DNA of 20,000 nucleotides from the IMG/VR virus record IMGVR_UViG_3300021197_000193, positions 45,105 to 65,104 of that record. One strand, written 5' to 3'. This DNA is from an uncultured virus (IMG/VR IMGVR_UViG_3300021197_000193). Its lineage: Duplodnaviria; Heunggongvirae; Uroviricota; Caudoviricetes. The notes under the pieces were generated by a model that worked only from the letters and a program-made list of their open reading frames with translations, made no database searches and was not told the DNA's origin. Below, piece after piece: positions 2,631 through 19,624 of the stretch. The position numbers and the translations under genes are program-made. Numbering within the stretch: position 1 is the stretch's first letter; every line of letters begins with the position of its first letter.

Positions 2631-5600
2631 ATGGCACTGTACCAATTAACTGACCGCCGCGGGAACAAAATACAGGTAGAAGGCCCAGAAGGCGCTACCA
2701 CAGAACAACTTGTGTCAATATACAACCGCACGATGGTAGAGCGCAGGCGCGAACCAGAACGTAGGTTCCGTGCAGGGTTGGAAGATTATTTCGGTACGCA
2801 AGAAAACATAGCGGAGCAGATAGCGCGTAGTAGAAAACCTACGGTGGGCGACTATTTTGGTGAAGTTCCAAAAGGTCTTATTGGCGGCGCTGCGGGGTTA
2901 GTAGAACAGGGCGCGTTAGGTCTTGCGGCATTACTACCAGAAGATGCAGAAAATGTTGTCCGTGATGGGATAAAATCTGTGGGCGGCGCGGTGCAAGATT
3001 ATGTAGCCCCAGACTTTAACTTAGAAGATAGCATCCCCCGCAAACTTAGCGAAGCAGGTGGTTCTTTTGCGGGTCTTGTTGGTGCGTCTCTTATAAACCC
3101 TATAGCAGGGGGCACATTGGCGGTAGCCGCGGGGTCTGGAGAAGCTAGCGAACGTGCGCGAGCCGCAGGTGCTACACAGGAACAACGTAACCTAGCAGCG
3201 TTACAGGGTATACTCCCGGGCGCACTTGAGCTTATCCCTGTAGGACGTTTAGTCAAAGGGATTAAACAAGTATATAAGGGTGAAGCTAAACCCGTCGAAC
3301 TTATAAAGAACCGCATCCAACGTGCATCGCGCGAAGGTGGTATAGAAGCCGCGCAAGAAGTTGCGTCTGGTATTGCCCAAAACATGATAGAGCAGGGGTA
3401 CAACCCCGAGCAAGGTACGTTTGAAGGTAGCGGAGAAGCCGCAGGGTACGGCGGTGCCGTAGGGTTTTTAGCGCAAAGCCTGCTTGACCTTGCTACACCT
3501 AGAACCCGTGGCAGTGCGGCAGATGTAGAACCAGAAGAAACACTTGCTTTACCTGCACCGGACACAGGTATTGCGGGGCTTTTACCTGCACCACCAAAAC
3601 AACTTGCCGACCAACGTAAACCTTTGGGTAATGCGCAAGCTCGCGCAGATGTAGGCAGAATAATTGATTCTACAGGGGATGTAACCCTTGGAGAGATGGA
3701 AGACATTGTAGCGCGAACAGGTATATCTCTGCCTGACCTTGAAACTGTTGTTTCTGAAGAAATGCAGAAACGTGGCACTAAGCTAGCGCAACGTGCGCAA
3801 GAAGAAATCGAAGATGAGCTTACTACTCCAGAAGTAGAACGCCCACCGTCCCGTATGGACACCGCTGTAGCAGATGCGTTGGCAGGTAGAAACGCAGTGC
3901 AAGAGGCAGCACGCAGACGTGAAGAACAAGCTGCATTAGAACGTGACGATGTAGCCGCGTACGAGCAACCCGACCTGTTAGCCGCAGAATTAGAAGCGGA
4001 ACGTAAAATATCACCAGAGGCTGCGGCACAAGATGCAGCGCGTCCTGCACCGCCGAACGTGGAGCTAGATGAACAAGGTAAAGTACGAGAAATAAAAGAA
4101 GAAGAAGTTTTACCAATACAGGGGCCACGAAGACGTGACCTTGTAGATTTAATAAGTGAAGAAAGTGCACTTGCTAAAGAAATTGAAGCGGAAGAAACGG
4201 TAAAACGTCAGCAAGAGCAAACAAGGGCCGAGTCTACCGCGGAAACCGCGCAGGGTAAATTAGACGCAGATCGTGCAGCGCAAACCGAAGCTACGCGCAC
4301 CAAAGTGTTGCAGGACACAGTGGCTAATGCAGGCGAAGTACGTAGACCAGAAGCGTTGCGTAGGCTGTACGAAACCGCGTTGACAGAAGCGGGAATTACA
4401 AACCCCAAAGCCACATCACAAGAAATGGAAAGCCTGCGCCGTGCGTCTAATGTCATACGGGCAAAAGACCCTGTAGCAGACGCCGCCGCCGCGCAAGAGG
4501 GAATCAAAGACCCAGCACAAGTAAAATTGGAAGCTATGGTAACTCCCAAAGAAAGGCGGCGAAATGTTAGACCAGTTGACCCAGAGACAGGTGGAGATGG
4601 CGTTTCGTCTGCTGGACAAGGCAGTACAGTCGGAGCCGCCCCAACCGCTGCGAGTACCGCCAACATTACAGCACCTAACGACAGCGGAATGGGACGCCCT
4701 GTGTCTGGCGTTGGAGGAACTACTGCACCAGAAGGAGCGCAGTCAGATACACTAAATCTGGACGCAGCTATTTTAGAAGCTGTAACAGACCCTGATCCTG
4801 TTACGCCTCCCGTAGAGCAGAAAAAACGGCCCGAGGCAGGACCCAAGTCAAAACGTGTTACACAGAAAACTAAACGTACGGATACCTCCGGTAGACGTAA
4901 AGTATTACCTACGTTTCCAGAAAAACAAACACTTACAAAAGTATCGAAAGACCTGAAGCGCAGGGGTCCAGCGGGTTCGTCTGTTCGTGGTACTCGTAAA
5001 GTCCAAGCCAAAGAAGACACTACACGCGCCGAGCTACGTAAACGGTGGGATGAAACTGCGCCAGCCGTGGTCAAACAAGACACCCAGACCACAGACACTT
5101 TGGTCAAAGGCGATGTGCTATCGAATAGTGACAATAAGAAAACTCTAAACTTCTTGGAGGGTAAGGTTACTACCCGTGACAAGGTTGGGCTTGCCGCTAA
5201 ACGCTACCTGTCTATGCACCCGAACCCAGAAGAAGGTTTGTTTGTAGCATTGTTCGATATGGTAAACCGCACGCCTAAGTTTTCTGGGCGTGAAAAAGGC
5301 ATGACCGATGCGCAAGCCGAGTTACGCAAAGGTACAAGTGACGTGCAAGGCGCACGCGCTGTATACTGGGCCATGAACAACCTGAGTCCACAAACACAGA
5401 AGTGGATGGACGAAACTAAAGCCGAGATACAAAAACAGTTAGATGCTGTTACGGGGTTAGACTACGCGGCGCGGACAGAATCACCTTTGACTATACGACA
5501 ACGCATAGAGAACGCTGCCCGTGCTATTAAAGAGCGCGAAGCGGTAACAGTGAAGACGGGAGTTACAGTTCAGACATCAGAAGCTGTAGAAGCTATGCCT

Positions 5601-8600
5601 GAAGGTCAGTACAGACCCCGTAGAAAAACAGGCAAGACTGCGTATGAAGCATATTTATCGGATCAGTACACCGCCGAAGAACGCAAAGCTATTGCCAAAG
5701 ACGATGACCTTGCGCTTAAAACATACGCAGACTTTGAGTTTCTACAGAAGCAAGGATTTGCCCTAGAAAAAGACGCGGTGGTTGGGCTAGATGCGGCACC
5801 CCACCCTACAGTTATGCAGGCCATAAAACGTGGTGATCTTAAAGCCGCGCTTGCCGCACTAGCCAACACAAACGGTAACGCACAGGTGCGAGAGCTAGCC
5901 GCTAAGTTTGCCAATGTAGCAGGTGACACAAAACTTGTTATAGTGAAGAACCTGAAGGCCGAAGACGGACGCCCCGCTGCAGGATTGTTTGATCCTAAGA
6001 CCAACACGATATCGCTAGACGCAGATACTGGTATCAACACGCACACGTTGATGCACGAAATGTCTCACGCAGGCATGTCAGCGGCATTGGCTGACCCTAA
6101 GAATGGGTTTGGTATTCAGCTTAAAAAGCTGTTCAAAGACTTGGATGGTCTGCTAGGTACAGCTTACGGCTCAAAAGACCCTGATGAATTTTTATCTGAG
6201 GCGATGAGCAATCCAGAGTTCCGATCAGAACTTGCAAGCATAAACCCAAAAGGCGAACCTGTTAGCGCACTGCAACGTTTCTTTAATATGGCTAACAACT
6301 TTTTGAGTAGGTTTGTGCCGTTTATTAAATCTCGTAACCTGACCGCTTTGCAAGAAGTAGACAGTCTTGTAGATGCGTTGTTAGCCCCTGCACCCATGTA
6401 TCGTTACGCCAACCAGATGGCAATGATGACTACCGCCGATGGTGTTAGGAAGTTTACACGAGACGCAGTTGATGCAACGCAGAAGGCTATAAACAAAGAA
6501 AGCCGAGAGCAATTCAGGTTCAACGTGCGGGACTTCTTTACCCAAGGGTTCTCAAAGAAAACCAAAAACCTGCTACTTAAACTTACTGGCTCTCAAGGGT
6601 TAGGCGACATTGCGGAAGCAGTTGGCTTGGGCAGAATGGGCCACGATTTGGATGAGTTGATATCCAACCAACGAGGAGAAATCCAAACCGCAAACGAACT
6701 TATTAAAAGAAAGATCAAGGAAATCCTAACCAAGTTAAACAAGGGTACGGACGAGCAGGCGCAAAAACGCCGAGAAGCCTTAGATCGTTTGATCTATGAT
6801 AACGACTACGGTGCCACTATCTATCAGGTAGACCCTACAAAACCAAAGGGTACATACATTAACAAAGACGGTAGCCCTCGTATAGACAACGATGGCAATG
6901 ATCTGTTGGAGGTATGGAACAAGCAACGTAAAGACTGGAAAGCATTAGGACCAGAGGGGCGAGCTGTATATAACGAGATGCGAGCAGTGTACAAAGGTCA
7001 GTACGAAAAGCTCAAAGCCGTTATCCTGAAACAGATTGACGAGTTGGTGCAGAACCCTGACGATGCTAAAAAACTGAAGAAGGACATCTTTGCCAGATTG
7101 TTCGATGCTAGCACCCTAGATGTGTACTTCCCGCTTATGCGTGACGGTGATTACGTGCTACGTTATGAGGTCAAGAACCCTAAGTCGTCACGCGAAGCCA
7201 CTGTGGTGCAGACATTTACTACAGACGCAGAACGTCAAGACGCTGCCAAGATGTTCCGAGCGAACAAAGACTATAAGAATGTAGAGATTGTTGACGAAGT
7301 GTCCGCGAACACCTTCAGGGGTACAGGCGTAGACCCAAGTTTTGCATACGAAGCCCTAAGTATTTTGGACAAAAACAAAGTCCCACAAGACGTAAAAGAT
7401 CAGGTAATCAAACTGTTTATAAACTCGCTACCTGAGACATCGTTTGCCAAGTCATTGCAGAAACGTAAAGGCACCCCGGGGTACATGCAGGATTCTGTGT
7501 ATGCTCTTAAGACAAAGGGCTACAGTCTTGCTAGTCAAACAGTCAAACTAAAATACGGGGCACTTTTGCGTCAGTATGAAGCTGACCTTGATACATTACC
7601 CTTTAATGCGATGTTTAAAGTTCCAAAAGCAAAGAGCTTGGTAGGGAAGAACACGGAACGGCTTACCGCTGCGTTTGGTGATGTAAAGGCAGAATTAAAA
7701 GACCGTGCGCAGTTTGCACGAAAAGGCGCGGACAACAAAAGCATAGAAGCGGTAGCCCGTAGACTGAACCAGACCGCGTTTATATACACCATCGGCTTTA
7801 ACGCATCGTCTGCTCTGGTCAACCTGTCGCAAATCCCGTTGTTCGTTGCCCCGTTTTTGGGCGGGAAACATGGGTACGTAAAAACGTACGCCGCTATTAA
7901 ATCTGCCTACGGTAATACATTACTGGGTGGTAAGCGTGGCGGCAAAACAAATTCAATACTAGATTTTTATGACATATCTGACAAAGGTACATTCACCCTG
8001 AAAAAAGGTTTAGAGTTACCTGAAGGGAAAGAAGCCGAACTACGCAACATGACCGCCTTGGTGCAAACTGCATCTCAACGGGGCTTGTTGGGCCAAGGGT
8101 TCTTAGCAGAAGCTATGGGGTTGAACGAGACTAGCCGCATCAAAAAGGGCGGTAAAATAGGCAACGCTATGGACAATGCGTCCGTGCTATCCGCATGGCT
8201 GTTTAACCACGCAGAACAACTTAACCGCCAAGTAACTTTAATGGCTTCGTTCAATCTAGCGTTGCAGGGCATAAAAATAAAAAACTACCTCGACACTAAC
8301 AAGTTAGACGACACTCCCGCCAATCGTACCAAGGCAGAAAAGAAAACGACTGGTAAAGACCCTAGCGAAGCACAAATAGAAGAAGCCGTGCGGCAAGCCA
8401 TTTATGATACACAGCAAACAAACGGTGGCACGTTCTTGGAGACTGCCCCGAGTATTGCGCGGGAAGGTATCGGGCGCGTTGCGTTTATGTATAAAAACTA
8501 CGGCCTGCAAATGTACTACACCATGTTTAAGACCGCAAAGATTGCATTGGACAGTGATAAAGGTAGATTGTTTGGCCCAGAAGGGTCACCCGAACGTAAG

Positions 8601-9446
8601 GCCGCGGTAAAACAACTTATCGGTATGCACGGATCGGCGTTGTTTTTTGCAGGGGTACAAGGACTACCATTGTACGGCGCAGTAAAACTTATGGTTAACC
8701 TGTTCTTATTGGATGAGGAAGAGGAAGATTTTGATACAATCGTGCGACAGTATATGGGTGAGGGTTGGTATAAAGGCGCGATAACCCAGTTCGCAGGGAT
8801 CGACGTGGCAGGGCGTATGGCGCTTACTGGACTTCTGATCCAAGAGAACCGCTATAACAACAACCCATCCCTAGAAGAAACAATCGGGTTCTACGCAGGT
8901 GGACCCGCACTTAGCGTTGCTAATCGTCTGTACCGTGGAGGTTCCGATTTACTGGCAGGGGAAACACAGCGTGGCATGGAAAGCATATTACCTGCAGGGG
9001 TGACCAACGCATACAGAGCAGCGTTTGGTAGGTATGCACAACAAGGCGGCGCGTTCACTAGACGTAACGACCCTATCTACGATGATGTTACCAATGGCGA
9101 ATTACTGATGTGGGGGCTTGGGTTCCCTCCTACAGAATACACATTCCGTCAGGAACAAAACTCTATCACCAAACGTATAGACATCGCTGTAAACAAGAAA
9201 CGATCCGCGCTAAACAAAAAATACTACGTTGCCTCGCGTATGGGAGATTACAGTGAGATGATGCAAGTCTATAAAGATATGCTTAAATTCAACAAGCGTC
9301 ATCCAGAGGCTGCTATTACCCCAGAGTCCATAGATCGTTCCATGAAGCGCCACGCAGAGACTACGGAAAACATGCACAATGGCGCGTCGTTTAGCACTAC
9401 GTACGGTGCCGCAGTTCAAGACATACGGAACGCCTTCAAGCAATAA
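2631..9446 (+). CDS. Giant virion/ejected polyvalent-type protein (2271 aa) with zincin-like HExxH metallopeptidase motif and PLxRFG-like domain
   Basis: AGLFDPKTNTISL...THTLMHEMSHA...DEFLSEAMSNPEF (HExxH at 6054-6068, downstream Glu). YFPLMRDGDY at ~7125-7154. Gly/Ala-rich N-terminal helices, a low-complexity linker and a long helical C-terminus with hydrophobic segments. Last gene of the + strand arm. Confidence 0.7.
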   Translation: MALYQLTDRRGNKIQVEGPEGATTEQLVSIYNRTMVERRREPERRFRAGLEDYFGTQENIAEQIARSRKPTVGDYFGEVPKGLIGGAAGLVEQGALGLAALLPEDAENVVRDGIKSVGGAVQDYVAPDFNLEDSIPRKLSEAGGSFAGLVGASLINPIAGGTLAVAAGSGEASERARAAGATQEQRNLAALQGILPGALELIPVGRLVKGIKQVYKGEAKPVELIKNRIQRASREGGIEAAQEVASGIAQNMIEQGYNPEQGTFEGSGEAAGYGGAVGFLAQSLLDLATPRTRGSAADVEPEETLALPAPDTGIAGLLPAPPKQLADQRKPLGNAQARADVGRIIDSTGDVTLGEMEDIVARTGISLPDLETVVSEEMQKRGTKLAQRAQEEIEDELTTPEVERPPSRMDTAVADALAGRNAVQEAARRREEQAALERDDVAAYEQPDLLAAELEAERKISPEAAAQDAARPAPPNVELDEQGKVREIKEEEVLPIQGPRRRDLVDLISEESALAKEIEAEETVKRQQEQTRAESTAETAQGKLDADRAAQTEATRTKVLQDTVANAGEVRRPEALRRLYETALTEAGITNPKATSQEMESLRRASNVIRAKDPVADAAAAQEGIKDPAQVKLEAMVTPKERRRNVRPVDPETGGDGVSSAGQGSTVGAAPTAASTANITAPNDSGMGRPVSGVGGTTAPEGAQSDTLNLDAAILEAVTDPDPVTPPVEQKKRPEAGPKSKRVTQKTKRTDTSGRRKVLPTFPEKQTLTKVSKDLKRRGPAGSSVRGTRKVQAKEDTTRAELRKRWDETAPAVVKQDTQTTDTLVKGDVLSNSDNKKTLNFLEGKVTTRDKVGLAAKRYLSMHPNPEEGLFVALFDMVNRTPKFSGREKGMTDAQAELRKGTSDVQGARAVYWAMNNLSPQTQKWMDETKAEIQKQLDAVTGLDYAARTESPLTIRQRIENAARAIKEREAVTVKTGVTVQTSEAVEAMPEGQYRPRRKTGKTAYEAYLSDQYTAEERKAIAKDDDLALKTYADFEFLQKQGFALEKDAVVGLDAAPHPTVMQAIKRGDLKAALAALANTNGNAQVRELAAKFANVAGDTKLVIVKNLKAEDGRPAAGLFDPKTNTISLDADTGINTHTLMHEMSHAGMSAALADPKNGFGIQLKKLFKDLDGLLGTAYGSKDPDEFLSEAMSNPEFRSELASINPKGEPVSALQRFFNMANNFLSRFVPFIKSRNLTALQEVDSLVDALLAPAPMYRYANQMAMMTTADGVRKFTRDAVDATQKAINKESREQFRFNVRDFFTQGFSKKTKNLLLKLTGSQGLGDIAEAVGLGRMGHDLDELISNQRGEIQTANELIKRKIKEILTKLNKGTDEQAQKRREALDRLIYDNDYGATIYQVDPTKPKGTYINKDGSPRIDNDGNDLLEVWNKQRKDWKALGPEGRAVYNEMRAVYKGQYEKLKAVILKQIDELVQNPDDAKKLKKDIFARLFDASTLDVYFPLMRDGDYVLRYEVKNPKSSREATVVQTFTTDAERQDAAKMFRANKDYKNVEIVDEVSANTFRGTGVDPSFAYEALSILDKNKVPQDVKDQVIKLFINSLPETSFAKSLQKRKGTPGYMQDSVYALKTKGYSLASQTVKLKYGALLRQYEADLDTLPFNAMFKVPKAKSLVGKNTERLTAAFGDVKAELKDRAQFARKGADNKSIEAVARRLNQTAFIYTIGFNASSALVNLSQIPLFVAPFLGGKHGYVKTYAAIKSAYGNTLLGGKRGGKTNSILDFYDISDKGTFTLKKGLELPEGKEAELRNMTALVQTASQRGLLGQGFLAEAMGLNETSRIKKGGKIGNAMDNASVLSAWLFNHAEQLNRQVTLMASFNLALQGIKIKNYLDTNKLDDTPANRTKAEKKTTGKDPSEAQIEEAVRQAIYDTQQTNGGTFLETAPSIAREGIGRVAFMYKNYGLQMYYTMFKTAKIALDSDKGRLFGPEGSPERKAAVKQLIGMHGSALFFAGVQGLPLYGAVKLMVNLFLLDEEEEDFDTIVRQYMGEGWYKGAITQFAGIDVAGRMALTGLLIQENRYNNNPSLEETIGFYAGGPALSVANRLYRGGSDLLAGETQRGMESILPAGVTNAYRAAFGRYAQQGGAFTRRNDPIYDDVTNGELLMWGLGFPPTEYTFRQEQNSITKRIDIAVNKKRSALNKKYYVASRMGDYSEMMQVYKDMLKFNKRHPEAAITPESIDRSMKRHAETTENMHNGASFSTTYGAAVQDIRNAFKQ

Positions 9447-9469
9447 AAATCCCCCGCGCGAGGCGGGGG
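9445..9469 (-). terminator. Rho-independent terminator of the - strand operon (possibly also acting on the + strand)
   Basis: The - strand reads CCCCCGC-CTCGC-GCGGGGG-ATTTTT: 7-bp GC stem then a T-tract, at the convergence of the two arms. Confidence 0.8.
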
Positions 9470-9510
9470 TAGTAGAGAGGAGAATGACAAGTATGTCGAG
9501 CTTGTCATGT
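9445..9510 (-). ncRNA. Candidate 3'-UTR-derived sRNA: hairpin + anti-SD linker + terminator
   Basis: 8-bp stem AUGACAAG/CUUGUCAU (9508-9484), then single-stranded UCUCCUCUCU, then the terminator hairpin. Confidence 0.35.
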
Positions 9511-9518
9511 ATGATGTA

Positions 9519-9746
9519 TCACACTGTCCTCCATATGCGAACCCCAAACATACCATTTTCAATTCGGACCCGCGTTTCTGCGCCCCACTTTTTGCGTTGC
9601 GCTATATCTTGTAGTTGTTTTCGCGCCTTAATAATGTTGACGCACGGGATGAAAACAGACGCTCCAACCACCATATCATCCCAATTAACAACTATTTTTA
9701 CTTGGTCTGGCGACAGATCATCAGTCTTCAGTGGTTTCTGATACAC
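9519..9746 (-). CDS. Small conserved-type phage protein (75 aa)
   Basis: GTG start overlapping the primase end. The pattern W..M.VG.SVFIP...G.RIWR is one I recognise from small phage proteins; function unknown. Confidence 0.7.
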   Translation of the reverse strand: MYQKPLKTDDLSPDQVKIVVNWDDMVVGASVFIPCVNIIKARKQLQDIAQRKKWGAETRVRIENGMFGVRIWRTV

Positions 9747-13268: not shown

Positions 13269-13284
13269 ATCATTCTCCTTTTAT

Positions 13285-13916: not shown

Positions 13917-13946
13917 TAGTCATTCTCCTACTGTAACGAGAATTAC

Positions 13947-15503: not shown

Positions 15504-15514
15504 TTGCTTCTCCT

Positions 15515-15534
15515 ATTTAGGGAACTCCCTAAAT
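15515..15534. promoter_or_regulatory. Palindromic operator-like site, copy 1
   Basis: ATTTAGGGA-AC-TCCCTAAAT with perfect 9-bp arms, between the HNH stop codon and the helicase RBS; second copy at 19605-19624. Confidence 0.6.
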
Positions 15535-15803: not shown

Positions 15804-16471
15804 CAGTTGGCTCCGTTATGGACACATTCAATGATAGGGCAGTGGCGTCTGCATAACCCATTAGGGCGAGCGTTCCACATATCTTCTTTTGCCGCGGTTT
15901 CCATCTGCCCATACTTGCCGAGCCATTTCTCCCACAGCTTAGATTTATCATACTCCATGTAAGTATCTTTTACCAAGTCATTACATACCACAAAAAGTAA
16001 TGCGGCGCGTACTTTCTTTATCTGCGGATACAACGCCATCAACGCTAGGGCCATCAACTCTAGCTGCCCTTTGTCCGCGTACTTGGAAGACTTGCCTGTT
16101 TTGTAATCCACAACAGTAGCTGTTTCGTCGTCTAATATAACTAAATCAGCTATACCGCGAAACCAAACATCATCCGCATAAAAATTACATGCGTCCAAGT
16201 TTGCTGTTAATCCTAATTTTATTTCACATAGTTTTTGCCCCTGCCTATCCTTTAAAGATGTTAAGGCTTGAGCTGCGTAGCTGAACTTAGCGGGCACAGG
16301 TGTGCCTTTACCAATAAAATCCTCGGCCATTTTATGGAACTCGTTGCCATATATTATAGCTTCGGTCTTTACAAACGGCACCTCTTTCAAGATGTGTTTA
16401 TGGTAATACTGTTTTGGACACTGCTCAAAGTCTTTGATCTTGCTAAACGACCACGGCCATACTTTTGTCAC
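15803..16471 (-). CDS. PD-(D/E)XK RecB/Cas4-like exonuclease
   Basis: WSFSKIKDFEQCP, RGIADLVI, VVDYKTGK, QLELMA and C-terminal CRRHCPIIEC (1+3 Cys, Fe-S-like). GTGA overlap with the polymerase stop. Confidence 0.85.
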   Translation of the reverse strand: MTKVWPWSFSKIKDFEQCPKQYYHKHILKEVPFVKTEAIIYGNEFHKMAEDFIGKGTPVPAKFSYAAQALTSLKDRQGQKLCEIKLGLTANLDACNFYADDVWFRGIADLVILDDETATVVDYKTGKSSKYADKGQLELMALALMALYPQIKKVRAALLFVVCNDLVKDTYMEYDKSKLWEKWLGKYGQMETAAKEDMWNARPNGLCRRHCPIIECVHNGAN

Positions 16472-18297
16472 TCACACTCTCCATATGATTTGCCTGTGCC
16501 GCTTTCACATGTGATCGGTAATCCATCAGCCCAGTCGGGCGTCTGGCGCATACATTCTTCTATGTACGCTTGTGCTTCGTCTAATTCTTCGTCGGCTACA
16601 CAGGCTACAATACTATCATGTACAGTTAGCACAACATTGTATCTCTTGGCAATAAGTAACATCTGATGCCCAATGATACAACGTGCAATGGCTTGGCATA
16701 CATTCTCCACGACCTTACCACCGTATATACGTTTCGGTCCACGCCTAGTCTTGTAAGTGTATTCAAACCCACGTTCACCCTGTTCCGCGTCTAAGCCATG
16801 ATAGAACATGGGTAGGCCCGAAGGTAACACAATGGCGCTATGCTTTGCGACTACATGTAGGACGCCTTCACGCCCAAACGGTAGATCATCTCCGCGTTGC
16901 ATGTGCTGCACCATGTTGTTGGCATCGCGCCATAACTCACTAATCGCATCGTTAGCGTCACGGTATACTTGTATGATGCGCCGTGCTTCTTCCAAGTCTA
17001 TATACACGCCCATACCTTGTAACTGTGCTTGGAACTTAACTGCCCCCATACCGTACCCTGCACCAAGGATAGTGGTTTTACCCACAAATCTTTGGTCTTT
17101 GCTTACCCCATCTACTGGCACGTTATATATGCTAGACGCCATGTACTTATATACGTCTTCACCCGCTGCGAACTGTGATACCAGATCATGCTGCCCTGCA
17201 AGCCACGCCAACACACGCGCTTCAATTTGGGAACTGTCACAATCAACAAGAGAATGTCCTGTTGGTGCGACTATGCTTCCCTTTAACTTCTTACCGTTTG
17301 GTCCACGGCTAGGTAGGTTCTGTAGGTTGATTTTATCATCTCCGCCCCAACGTCCAGTGTGCGCAGCATAATATCTTACAGGCACAGGCAGAAGTCCGCG
17401 CGCTGCTATATCTATAAACCTCTGCGTACGCGTTTCTTCTAGCGTGGATTTACTGCCTAACCTTGCGGCCACCAGTGCTTGCACCCGATCATCTTCGTGG
17501 TCAGTCAGTGCTTTAAAGTCTTCGTCGTTCTTAGCGAACGCAAATGTTTCTTTGCCTGTTGTCAGACTTATCTTCATGGGCGGTTTAACCCCGAACCCTT
17601 TTAGTAACTCCGCGAACTTAGGGTTGGACATAAGGTCTTTTTTGTCTTCAACACCTGCATCAGATAGCAGCCTTTCTTTTCGCTGCTTAACATCCTGCAA
17701 GTGCGACTGTAGCAATCCGCTGTCCAACTCTAGTGTAGGCTCAGTAAACATCCGCAGGGTGGCGTCTATCAAACGTAGCTCCGGCTTAGGGAACCGTTTG
17801 AGCATCCTGTTAAAAAGTTTGTAGGTTAGTTCCACATCATTTATGCAGTAGTCTCCGTACTGCTCTAATTCTTCGGTGGCAAAATCTCCACGTTGCTTGC
17901 CGATTGCGCGTACGACCTCTGTGCCTTTAACGCCGAGATTGTACCTCTCAGATAACGCAGCGAGACTTGCGCGAGCTTCAGTCCCATGTAGGGCACGGGC
18001 AATACACAAAGTATCGGTATACATCCGAGGACGAATACCAAAACGCCAACTAAGAATGGCACCATCAAACATAGTGTTATGACAAAGTACCATAGCATCT
18101 TCCCAAGGGAACGATGTGAGGTATCGGTTAAGCTGTTCGTACGTACCACTGGCCCACTCCGTCTCCCCATTATTTACTTTAACAGCCACGCCGATCACCT
18201 CAAAACGAGGATCACGGACGTAGGCTTCTGTTGTTAACTTAGACAAAGAATAATCTCTGTCATAGTAGGTTTCAAAATCTAGCGTGATTAAGTCCAT
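16468..18297 (-). CDS. polA: Family A DNA polymerase with 3'-5' exonuclease domain
   Basis: Exo I TLDFETY, Exo II HNTMFD, Exo III YCINDV; motif A DSSQIEARVLAWL, motif B RFVGKTTILGAGYG, motif C LTVHDSIV. Confidence 0.95.
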   Translation of the reverse strand: MDLITLDFETYYDRDYSLSKLTTEAYVRDPRFEVIGVAVKVNNGETEWASGTYEQLNRYLTSFPWEDAMVLCHNTMFDGAILSWRFGIRPRMYTDTLCIARALHGTEARASLAALSERYNLGVKGTEVVRAIGKQRGDFATEELEQYGDYCINDVELTYKLFNRMLKRFPKPELRLIDATLRMFTEPTLELDSGLLQSHLQDVKQRKERLLSDAGVEDKKDLMSNPKFAELLKGFGVKPPMKISLTTGKETFAFAKNDEDFKALTDHEDDRVQALVAARLGSKSTLEETRTQRFIDIAARGLLPVPVRYYAAHTGRWGGDDKINLQNLPSRGPNGKKLKGSIVAPTGHSLVDCDSSQIEARVLAWLAGQHDLVSQFAAGEDVYKYMASSIYNVPVDGVSKDQRFVGKTTILGAGYGMGAVKFQAQLQGMGVYIDLEEARRIIQVYRDANDAISELWRDANNMVQHMQRGDDLPFGREGVLHVVAKHSAIVLPSGLPMFYHGLDAEQGERGFEYTYKTRRGPKRIYGGKVVENVCQAIARCIIGHQMLLIAKRYNVVLTVHDSIVACVADEELDEAQAYIEECMRQTPDWADGLPITCESGTGKSYGECE

Positions 18298-18731: not shown

Positions 18732-19050
18732 TGTTTTCTCCTCTTGGCAAGTCATATTTTCTTTTTATGTTAGACGCTGTTTTTGGGCTTATACCCATTA
18801 TTTCCGCGATAGATTTCAACGTCATGCTACGTTTCAACATGCGGTCAACCATCTCAGCGTCTTTGGTCAACACCAACTTATTGGCTTCTTTCTTGGGTCT
18901 ACCCCCCATCTGTCCGTTAAGTTTGTTGGTGCAGTTTTTGTGGGTGACACGAGAAAGTACCCGTGGGTTATCTTCTTTATCTTTTTTGGTTTGTTTCTCC
19001 CACACTTCCCGATAAAGTTCTTCATATTTTATTCGCTCTTGCTCATTCAT
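18688..19050 (-). CDS. HTH DNA-binding protein (120 aa)
   Basis: RBS AGAGG; NGQMGGRPKK motif followed by HTH MTLKSIAEIMGISPKTASNIKRKY; 44-nt overlap with the next gene. Confidence 0.7.
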   Translation of the reverse strand: MNEQERIKYEELYREVWEKQTKKDKEDNPRVLSRVTHKNCTNKLNGQMGGRPKKEANKLVLTKDAEMVDRMLKRSMTLKSIAEIMGISPKTASNIKRKYDLPRGENNGEESKQSGKSLEV

Positions 19051-19059
19051 GTGTATGCC

Positions 19060-19249
19060 TCTTATTTAATAGTGCCCTGCAGCCCACGCAAAAACAGGAG
19101 TCAAAAAATGGGCCGCAGGGTCTAACCGTACGCGGTTTCTTCGGTGCAATCACAACAACAGAAAGGATAATCATGGAGGTCGTTGCTTACACTGCTGCGG
19201 TTTTCGTGGGACAAATCAAAAAACCCACAACCCACTCACAGCTTGGGTT
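19060..19249 (-). ncRNA. Candidate structured ncRNA: five tandem hairpins, two with anti-SD/anti-AUG loops
   Basis: Stems at 19229-19249, 19206-19228, 19144-19192, 19124-19137 and 19075-19120. Four G-U wobbles in the two large stems form only on the - strand. This is the largest intergenic gap in an otherwise tightly packed operon. Confidence 0.6.
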
Positions 19250-19550: not shown

Positions 19551-19580
19551 TACCATTCTCCGATACCAGTACCCCCCTAG

Positions 19581-19604: not shown

Positions 19605-19624
19605 ATTTAGGGAGTTCCCTATTT
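19605..19624. promoter_or_regulatory. Palindromic operator-like site, copy 2
   Basis: ATTTAGGGAGTTCCCTATTT is 18/20 identical (17 contiguous) to the reverse complement of 15515-15534 and overlaps the stop codon of the 83-aa ORF. Confidence 0.6.

Follow-up and report, generated by a model that had tools for sequence, protein, structure and literature searches.

The phage antisense RNAs treated in a 2025 review, as far as its available text goes, act mostly on single genes in temperate phages or on host genes (PMC12197685). Among them, the c4 antisense RNA of P1 and P7 blocks translation at the ribosome-binding site (RBS) of the phage's own mRNA and serves antirepressor control in these temperate phages, and the sar RNA of P22, a stand-alone RNA of 68/69 nucleotides (nt), blocks translation initiation of a phage mRNA (PMC12197685). 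In Cluster K mycobacteriophages, SAS and ESAS combine an extended RBS on non-structural genes with lineage-specific inverted repeats and, in four K1 phages, one reverse copy (PMC3203893); the available text of two reports states their function as unknown (PMC3203893; PMC11373665). The cuckoo RNAs of Alphaproteobacteria comprise two to four hairpins with CCUCCUCCC in each loop (PMC4615179). T4 RegB is an endoribonuclease which needs ribosomal protein S1 and inactivates early phage mRNAs through GGAG and downstream bases, in an 11-nt site (PMC1702504). Here, we analyse a locus of an uncultured phage (Caudoviricetes; IMG/VR record IMGVR_UViG_3300021197_000193). The window, i.e. the whole stretch of 20,000 nt that was analysed (positions 45,105 to 65,104), is the final 20 kb of this complete 65,104-bp record. 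The element in question, located in the 72-bp gap between convergent plus- and minus-strand operons, is a real, conserved and uncatalogued candidate regulatory RNA. We judge it moderately probable that it is a trans-acting antisense small RNA (sRNA) which is made from its own promoter and represses early/replication translation.

On this reading the RNA works like c4 of P1, but it is not c4. Both are phage-encoded small RNAs with pairing, here predicted, around the RBS of the phage's own mRNA and with pairing bases exposed by structure. In contrast to c4, however, the element has no Rfam covariance-model match. Furthermore, c4 targets an antirepressor operon, whereas up to about six early/replication RBSs are matched here and the tyrosine integrase (PF00589) and serine recombinase (PF07508) families are absent from all five complete genomes; the phages are apparently lytic. 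The sar RNA has one target (ant) and a role in lysogeny, whereas here the distance to the putative targets is 4-10 kb or more and the pairing extends over only 8-14 nt. Reportedly, sar is encoded opposite its target. The closest layout is that of SAS/ESAS, where non-structural genes likewise have an extended RBS, inverted repeats lie upstream and the reverse copy is single. This is an analogy and not homology: sequences and hosts are unrelated, the RBSs found here lack the 13-bp SAS consensus, and SAS is an almost invariant 13-mer whereas the RBS class described here is looser and drifting. Like the cuckoo RNAs, the element displays a pyrimidine motif resembling an anti-Shine-Dalgarno (anti-SD) sequence; unlike them, it has one 5′ hairpin with a variable loop, carries UUCUCC(U) in a linker, extended by a variable part that tracks the phage RBSs, and matches no Rfam family. 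Selective shut-off of early mRNAs via GGAG and downstream bases would recall T4 RegB, the reader of the site here appearing to be an RNA and not a protein nuclease. We found no account of this RNA in the literature; a catalogue of 10,006 viral RNA candidates (PMC10690425), whose alignments were unread, may list it without a function. Searches of the readable tables of that catalogue by motif and contig identifier were without match, and the available text of the catalogue paper and of PMC5737381 shows nothing similar.

On the minus strand, a hairpin at 9508-9484 (8 bp) is followed by the unpaired linker UCUCCUCUCUACUA at 9483-9470, a 7-bp GC terminator stem at 9469-9451 and AUUUUU; the coordinates and matches given in the preliminary description of this DNA were all confirmed. 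The fold of 9445-9510 has a z-score of -5.7. The predicted small RNA of about 62 nt would run from a +1 at G9506, placed by start-site signals, to the U-run (9445..9506, minus strand, in agreement with the fold). Its 5′ hairpin, named P1 (9486..9506, minus strand), reaches 9508-9484 in a read-through transcript, and its 3′ arm carries the 5′ half of the seed. The seed UUGUCAUUCUCCU (9478..9490, minus strand) is indicated by fold prediction and conservation; AUUCUCCU within it is predicted to be single-stranded and could act as a toehold. The intrinsic terminator (9445..9469) should be functional on the minus strand only, as judged from T-run polarity.

Relatives were collected in three scans of viral contigs, with 80/90, 80/92 and 60/60 confirmed. 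They yielded 185 loci with the full junction and at least 90 nt after the stop codon, 118 of them distinct; grouped with the window at 85% identity, these make 65 lineages. The junction has a conserved order, in which the stop codon is followed by TAnnnT and, about six bases on, by the hairpin, the pyrimidine-rich anti-SD, the GC hairpin and the U-run. TCTCC occurs in the RNA body of 50/65 lineages against a shuffle mean of 10.3 (max 18), and the sense form GGAGA in none. It is predicted to be unpaired at 0.83, against 0.52 elsewhere in the body (49 lineages), which agrees with the toehold suggested earlier for UCUCCU. UUCUCC, complementary to the SD, is the most conserved part of the RNA. Of the 64 lineages whose GC hairpin is strong, 60 have the T-run on the RNA strand and three have it on the other. 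In the P1 hairpin, 80.8% of cells are paired (30 sequences), with 43 G-U against 13 A-C combinations; it is missing in one clade (L077, L125, L132). A non-coding body is flanked by promoter and intrinsic terminator as conserved sequence signals, which is what is expected of an sRNA. The second expected trait, a conserved and accessible seed complementary to several distant mRNAs and co-varying with them, is also found, with some clades failing.

Rfam gave no family at gathering score in the window, only chance matches within 9300-9700 (E 2.4 or worse), and no match at the junctions present in the scanned pieces of relatives. A covariance model built on an automatic structure with four pairs only, and hence used as a sequence profile, found one match in the phage's own genome and one junction in each of eight relatives' records, several of them weak (E 0.05-0.4); it found none in G005, Pag-Yong1, DSL-LC04, L326 and L327. 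The junction is present in a public run, where one X6 contig covers 8831-10579, the run being possibly not independent. Four runs mapped to the stretch gave sparse pieces and were not used as evidence.

Two variations were seen inside the element. A second anti-SD-like motif (CCTCCC or CCTCCTT) occupies the 5′ hairpin loop in several lineages (L148, L151, L154-L156, L161, L175, L180, L184, L219, L227). In addition, conserved words are inserted in terminator loops, namely GGTTTCGCACTGCAA or GTTTCCGAGGC depending on the lineage (L017, L029, L038, L043, L176; L060-L078, L146, L149, L166, L195-L213).

Promoter signals precede the RNA on the minus strand. The hexamer TTCGCA (9536..9541), located in the last codons of the 75-amino-acid (aa) gene which closes the replication operon, lies 17 nt from the -10 and may serve as a -35 box according to position tallies in the 65 lineages. 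The third position of the Val codon within it is T in 31/48 cases, compared with 143/540 for other Val codons of this gene. The putative extended -10 (9513..9521) consists of TG-A, the stop codon, followed by TACATC, with the family consensus TGA-TAnnnT; the TG of the stop codon sits at the extended -10 position. TAnnnT is found immediately 3′ of the stop in 49/65 lineages and TGA followed by TA in 56/65, whereas TAnnnT follows only 4/531 other early-gene stops and 0/187 TGA stops. The 13th base after the stop is G in 40/65 lineages, with a pyrimidine-purine step there in 35/65, and on these grounds the +1 was placed at G9506, giving a 62-nt RNA. The conserved extended -10 over the stop codon, the synonymous-site bias at the -35-like box and the pyrimidine-purine step at the hairpin base all point to transcription from an own promoter rather than to processing of a 3′ untranslated region (UTR). 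Operon read-through would carry the seed too, and both origins may occur.

The matches of the seed to early RBSs are extensive. At 13929-13919, AGGAGAATGAC, the RBS of a 133-aa gene (13919..13929, minus strand; 11/11), is perfectly complementary to GUCAUUCUCCU (9488-9478); this RBS is also the most consistently co-varying target. The RBS of the SSB gene (13270..13279, minus strand) offers 10 Watson-Crick pairs and a G-U, with a predicted binding of -13.2 kcal/mol. That of the DUF6378 gene (18736..18744, minus strand) is complementary over 9 nt in a shifted register, and that of a VRR-NUC-like endonuclease gene (19554..19561, minus strand) over 8 nt, rising to 12/12 in the relative G015. These four matches had been listed before and were all recovered. 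A weaker putative target is the RBS of the SNF2-type helicase gene (15508..15514, minus strand), with 7 nt here and up to 13 nt in relatives. The start region of the PD-(D/E)XK gene (16460..16482, minus strand) is a possible target through an interrupted duplex, proposed from co-folding alone (-17.2 kcal/mol). The best matches in the phage's own genome lie outside the window: GGAGAATGACAA is matched 12/12 at the RBSs of two adjoining genes, encoding a 366-aa ATPase (G000:C1:5020, minus strand) and a 407-aa protein (G000:C1:3890, minus strand). The matched RBSs thus belong to genes for SSB, ATPase, helicase and nuclease and to genes without assigned function. The preliminary description had placed the targets in the replication module; matches do occur there, but the set of predicted targets is wider and is turning over between lineages.

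It had also cautioned that shared SD sequences inflate such matches. A chance test in which AGGAG was kept fixed and the flanks were drawn at random from the pool of early RBSs gave P = 0.0002 for at least 4 of 21 early RBSs matching at least 10 nt (20,000 trials); shared SD design is therefore not the explanation. In co-folding within the own genome, early leaders gave -8.0 kcal/mol (21 genes) and late leaders -4.4 kcal/mol (41 genes), the top four being those of the 407-aa, PD-(D/E)XK, SSB and ATPase genes. The 133-aa leader reached a predicted binding of only -7.5 kcal/mol because a leader hairpin covers its own SD.

That leader (window 13919-13945, minus strand) folds over its SD, and many relatives share the TCTCGTT found upstream of it. 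For two other genes, SD-supported starts lie downstream of the first start codons given by a mechanical listing of open reading frames: 18731 versus 18755 for DUF6378, and 19550 versus 19556 for the VRR-NUC-like gene.

Across relatives, the linker proved conserved and co-varying with the RBSs. The covariation set comprised the 56 lineages with CTCC, 4.8 kb upstream and three RBSs, nine of the 65 being left out. In these, the two best perfect duplexes with the lineage's own RBSs averaged 8.25 nt, compared with 7.0 +/- 0.14 for permuted seeds, and the p-value stood at the floor of 20,000 permutations. Selectivity and orthologue counts were made on RBSs containing GGAG. Antisense calls over the junction itself were set aside before counting. 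For the 133-aa orthologues, own seeds matched 7.8 and permuted seeds 6.3 nt (49/60 orthologues scored, p 1e-4); for SNF2 the values were 7.35 and 6.6 nt (40/61, p 0.0002) and for SSB 8.34 and 7.8 nt (35/48, p 0.009). Covariation was not significant for the DUF6378 orthologues (10/11, p 0.11), and the HTH gene used as control was flat (5.33 versus 5.34 nt; 12/63 orthologues). Among 26 disjoint lineage pairs differing in seed, which were picked greedily by tree distance so that distant pairs may share branches, the own seed was better in 14 and the swapped one in 4, with 8 ties (p 0.03).

Individual cases illustrate the compensation. The window seed (...CAUUCUCC) is matched by GGAGAAUG at five RBSs, and the seed of G015 (...CGUUCUCC) by GGAGAACG at the ATPase, 407-aa and VRR-NUC orthologues: the window seed has A where most have G, with U for C at the five RBSs, and G015 keeps G/C. 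In G001, a seed G opposite U at the SSB RBS represents the G-U state. Between L125 and L132, two seed differences are mirrored at the same two positions of the 133-aa RBS, with 12/12 matches in each. L188 matches 14 nt and L230 12 nt, each with its own variant. The genes bearing the long match change from lineage to lineage.

The matching is furthermore largely confined to one temporal class. In 33 records, pairing of at least 8 nt was found for 87/422 early but only 5/208 late RBSs containing GGAG, and a paired test on the 16 records with at least four such RBSs per class gave p 0.001. A total of 1.2 Mb contains 48 perfect complements of at least 10 nt. Early starts account for 37 of these and other early-strand sites for 10; the one left is on the late strand, and no late start is hit. 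The putative seed is conserved, co-varies with early RBSs and spares late RBSs. Taken together, the conserved promoter-hairpin-seed-terminator layout, the early-versus-late selectivity and the seed-RBS covariation indicate an RNA that pairs with the phage's own early RBSs. From this comparative evidence we infer that the RNA is transcribed, where it starts and that it pairs in vivo, as well as its timing and an effect that represses and does not activate.

The following sequence of events is proposed. Host RNA polymerase would transcribe the RNA of about 62 nt from the sigma-70-type promoter in the last codons and the stop codon of the final gene of the replication operon, and the RNA would end at the terminator of that operon. 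The unpaired AUUCUCCU would nucleate on the SD (AGGAGA) of early/replication mRNAs, and the duplex would then grow into the spacer between SD and start (AUGACAA) as the 5′ hairpin opens, reaching 10-13 bp. Such a duplex would cover the RBS and block initiation on a subset of these mRNAs. Specificity would come from the spacer match, early genes having a private extended RBS and late genes escaping via other spacers. The purpose may be a delayed, group-wise brake on early/replication protein synthesis as RNA and template copies accumulate; exclusion of superinfecting kin is a possible added role. The convergent structural operon, ending in a gene for a 2271-aa LPD39 protein (2631..9446, plus strand), has no U-rich terminator on its own strand at the junction, so its mRNA may run on late into the RNA gene. 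Such read-through could give an antisense transcript neutralising the RNA and would complicate the timing model.

If this holds, the novelty would lie in the apparent reach of the RNA: by way of the spacer between SD and start, it would be directed at an entire temporal class of mRNAs of its own phage, with seed and targets visibly evolving together. It would be an RNA counterpart of the early shut-off of T4 RegB type, give a rule by which early regulons can be read from sequence, and offer a natural series of orthogonal RNA-RBS pairs. In a more speculative extension, which we hold only tentatively, it forms part of a private RNA code of apparently lytic phages. One sRNA and its matching extended RBSs would then constitute a translational regulon which diverges like repressor-operator pairs, times the early-to-late switch and silences early genes of superinfecting close kin, sparing, and being evaded by, lineages with another seed; the same principle, independently arisen, would explain SAS of Cluster K1, which have been without an explanation since 2011.

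For the SAS motifs, this suggests a hypothesis that can be tested directly in culture, with Cluster K1 mycobacteriophages as the test system. In Anaya, Adephagia, CrimD and Nutello, the reverse SAS copy falls into the loop of a predicted hairpin (unpaired 0.97-0.99). Of nine intergenic regions checked, five (Yuna, Amohnition, Shandong1, Hurricane, Pixie) lacked an anti-SAS loop, and none was found in the right part of TM4. In Adephagia, the anti-SAS loop sits in the 92-93 gap, where late transcription is reported to start (PMC11373665). In Anaya, the reverse SAS (L328:29871-29883) occupies the loop of a long predicted hairpin of the sense strand, with matching gaps in L331, L332 and L333; 154 mycobacteriophage records contain a sequence similar to this region.

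Several observations weigh against the proposed antisense sRNA, and some of them speak for other explanations. Covariation in the P1 hairpin was not above that of shuffles (28/500). Five of the 65 lineages (L079, L141, L158, L183, L187) lack CTCC in the scored body. No matching was seen in the clade of L078, L197, L209 and L213, within the 10 kb scored, nor in L166 and L232, and the own seed ranks 44-53 of 56 for L078, L166, L197, L209 and L232; 7-8-nt matches at more distant early genes do occur in G035 and G039, which belong to that clade. As the lineages are related, the tallies over them are not independent and pooled p-values are inflated; gene starts came from an SD-guided caller made for this analysis. 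The RNA runs containing the stretch are assembled contigs (10 rows, four recorded as RNA) and are mute on strand, ends and level.

Two further points concern the origin of the RNA. The window's own -10, TACATC, lacks the last T, and in the clade of L125 and L132 the match begins just before the usual +1, with two of its pairing bases 1-2 nt upstream. Both would fit a seed that acts, with the same pairing, from the 3′ end of the replication-operon mRNA, either as a processed 3′ UTR fragment or by long-range pairing within the transcript, the promoter-like boxes being weak or vestigial. The unit indeed lies between the operon's last stop and its terminator, hence on every full-length mRNA. As regards the -10, hexamers without the last T are described as common in alphaproteobacteria (PMC7703639); the present data assign the host to no group. 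This explanation, which is that of the preliminary description with its feedback sRNA derived from a 3′ UTR, we regard as unlikely. Its anti-RBS RNA directed at the phage's own early/replication genes is supported, with late RBSs avoided, but the signals of an own promoter speak against the origin it gave: the TAnnnT at a fixed place, the synonymous bias at the -35 together with the TG motif, and the pyrimidine-purine step are hard to explain without an active promoter.

The early leaders themselves keep another explanation alive, since they are repeated DNA cassettes with a lineage-specific palindrome. In the window, TTTAGGGAANTCCCTAAA lies just upstream of a target RBS (15515..15534, without strand) as a companion feature with a possible operator-like role, which recalls ESAS. 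The genome has nine copies of it, none outside the early arm and frequently immediately 5′ of an RBS: window 15515-15534 and 19606-19621, and seven more at G000:C1:890-8280. At the same places relatives carry different palindromes, TTCGGGCANNTGCCCGAA in G002/G003/G018, GTGTAACANTGTTACAC in G035 and GTTATAACACGTTATAAC in G028/G041. Recombination could homogenise these cassettes of palindrome and extended RBS, or a protein could bind them; the inverted copy at the junction would then be another such site, and covariation would arise without RNA pairing. The letter common to five RBSs in the window's lineage would fit, as does the behaviour of isolated mismatches in own duplexes, which show no G-U preference (18 wobble versus 17 anti-wobble; other seeds 512 versus 569), so that the targets offer no RNA-specific signature. 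Against this stands that the inverted copy is single, always in one place, without palindrome, between a promoter and a one-way terminator and predicted to be unpaired. Furthermore, 47/48 long matches are on one strand and the matching tracts measure merely 10-14 nt. We consider a purely DNA-level origin of the covariation unlikely.

Could the RNA instead be aimed at the host? If it served mainly to attack host mRNAs at large through its anti-SD, or to titrate a host factor, it would match phage early RBSs only through their copying of a host-preferred RBS. The conservation of UUCUCC, the SD complement, above all other parts would agree with this, as would the second CCUCC-type motif in the hairpin loop of some lineages, which is reminiscent of alphaproteobacterial cuckoo RNAs (PMC4615179). 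However, the matches reach into the spacer, differ between close phage lineages and track the phage's own RBSs, and late RBSs, which serve the host ribosome too, are without match. A mainly host-directed role appears improbable on this evidence.

The sign of the effect has also to be considered. Pairing might be positive or protective, opening self-hairpins or shielding GGAG from a RegB-like nuclease. In early mRNAs, the GGAG cleaved by T4 RegB is part of an 11-nt A-rich consensus (PMC1702504). The 133-aa leader, as described above, folds over its own SD, which would suit such a role. Yet the predicted duplex covers both SD and spacer, and an antisense duplex in this position should shut out the 30S subunit, which makes protection very improbable.

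It is hardly credible that AGGAGA at 9478-9483 is simply the RBS of a translated plus-strand open reading frame antisense to the 75-aa gene: SD and ATG (9493) at 10-nt spacing do open an 82-aa frame in the window, and an ATG follows GGAG at 4-12 nt in 15/50 lineages, but start spacing and frame vary, lengths range from 2 to 82 aa, 24/50 lineages have no ATG, GTG or TTG there, and promoter and terminator point the other way. The shadow frame at 9484..9741 (plus strand; ATG 9484 or 9493) was rejected as a gene, its ATGs, of which that at 9493 had been pointed out, being present but unconserved and its frames scattered, with no Pfam match.

Two operons meet at the element. The plus strand encodes packaging and structural proteins (terminase, portal, major capsid), the last being the LPD39 protein, which ends at 9446. 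The minus strand carries early/replication genes for DNA polymerase A, the PD-(D/E)XK nuclease, the SNF2 helicase, SSB and a DUF927 primase-helicase. Last in the latter operon is the 75-aa gene (9519..9746, minus strand), in whose 3′ end the putative promoter is located. It has relatives in IMG/VR and no Pfam or PHROG match, and is absent from the cultured phages searched; a genome scan with its alignment gave no match.

The phage family is widespread, in marine and freshwater settings. The closest cultured capsids show 56-74% identity, and capsid relatives include HTVC023P/HTVC027P, CRP-901/902, DSL-LC04 and Pag-Yong1; the element was not found at the convergent junction of Pag-Yong1. As far as its available text goes, PMC10149686 covers only distant capsid relatives. 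SSB relatives are small Roseobacter phages (29-43% identity). Capsid matches are spread over bins of many unrelated taxa and name no host. One capsid relative (75%; L295, in G058) lies near the start of a 466-kb contig in a Pseudomonas bin and is possibly a prophage or a chimera; no copy of the 75-aa gene turned up in this genome.

Finally, two other structured RNAs were encountered. Window 19105-19247 (minus strand) holds a separate structured non-coding element after the VRR-NUC-like gene. It contains conserved blocks such as CCGAAGAAACC and GGTTAGTCCC as well as a CTCCATG motif, has no Rfam match, and recurs in 4/32 other records by blastn and in two more by eye. The region 19060-19249 had previously been read as another anti-SD element; it is instead a different, patchily present structured RNA which the model of the present RNA does not match. 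In addition, the Rfam Mu-gpT-DE RNA (RF03012) scored above gathering at L081:16755-16805 (G000) and L089:18432-18484 (G002); in G000 it lies just 3′ of the major capsid gene.

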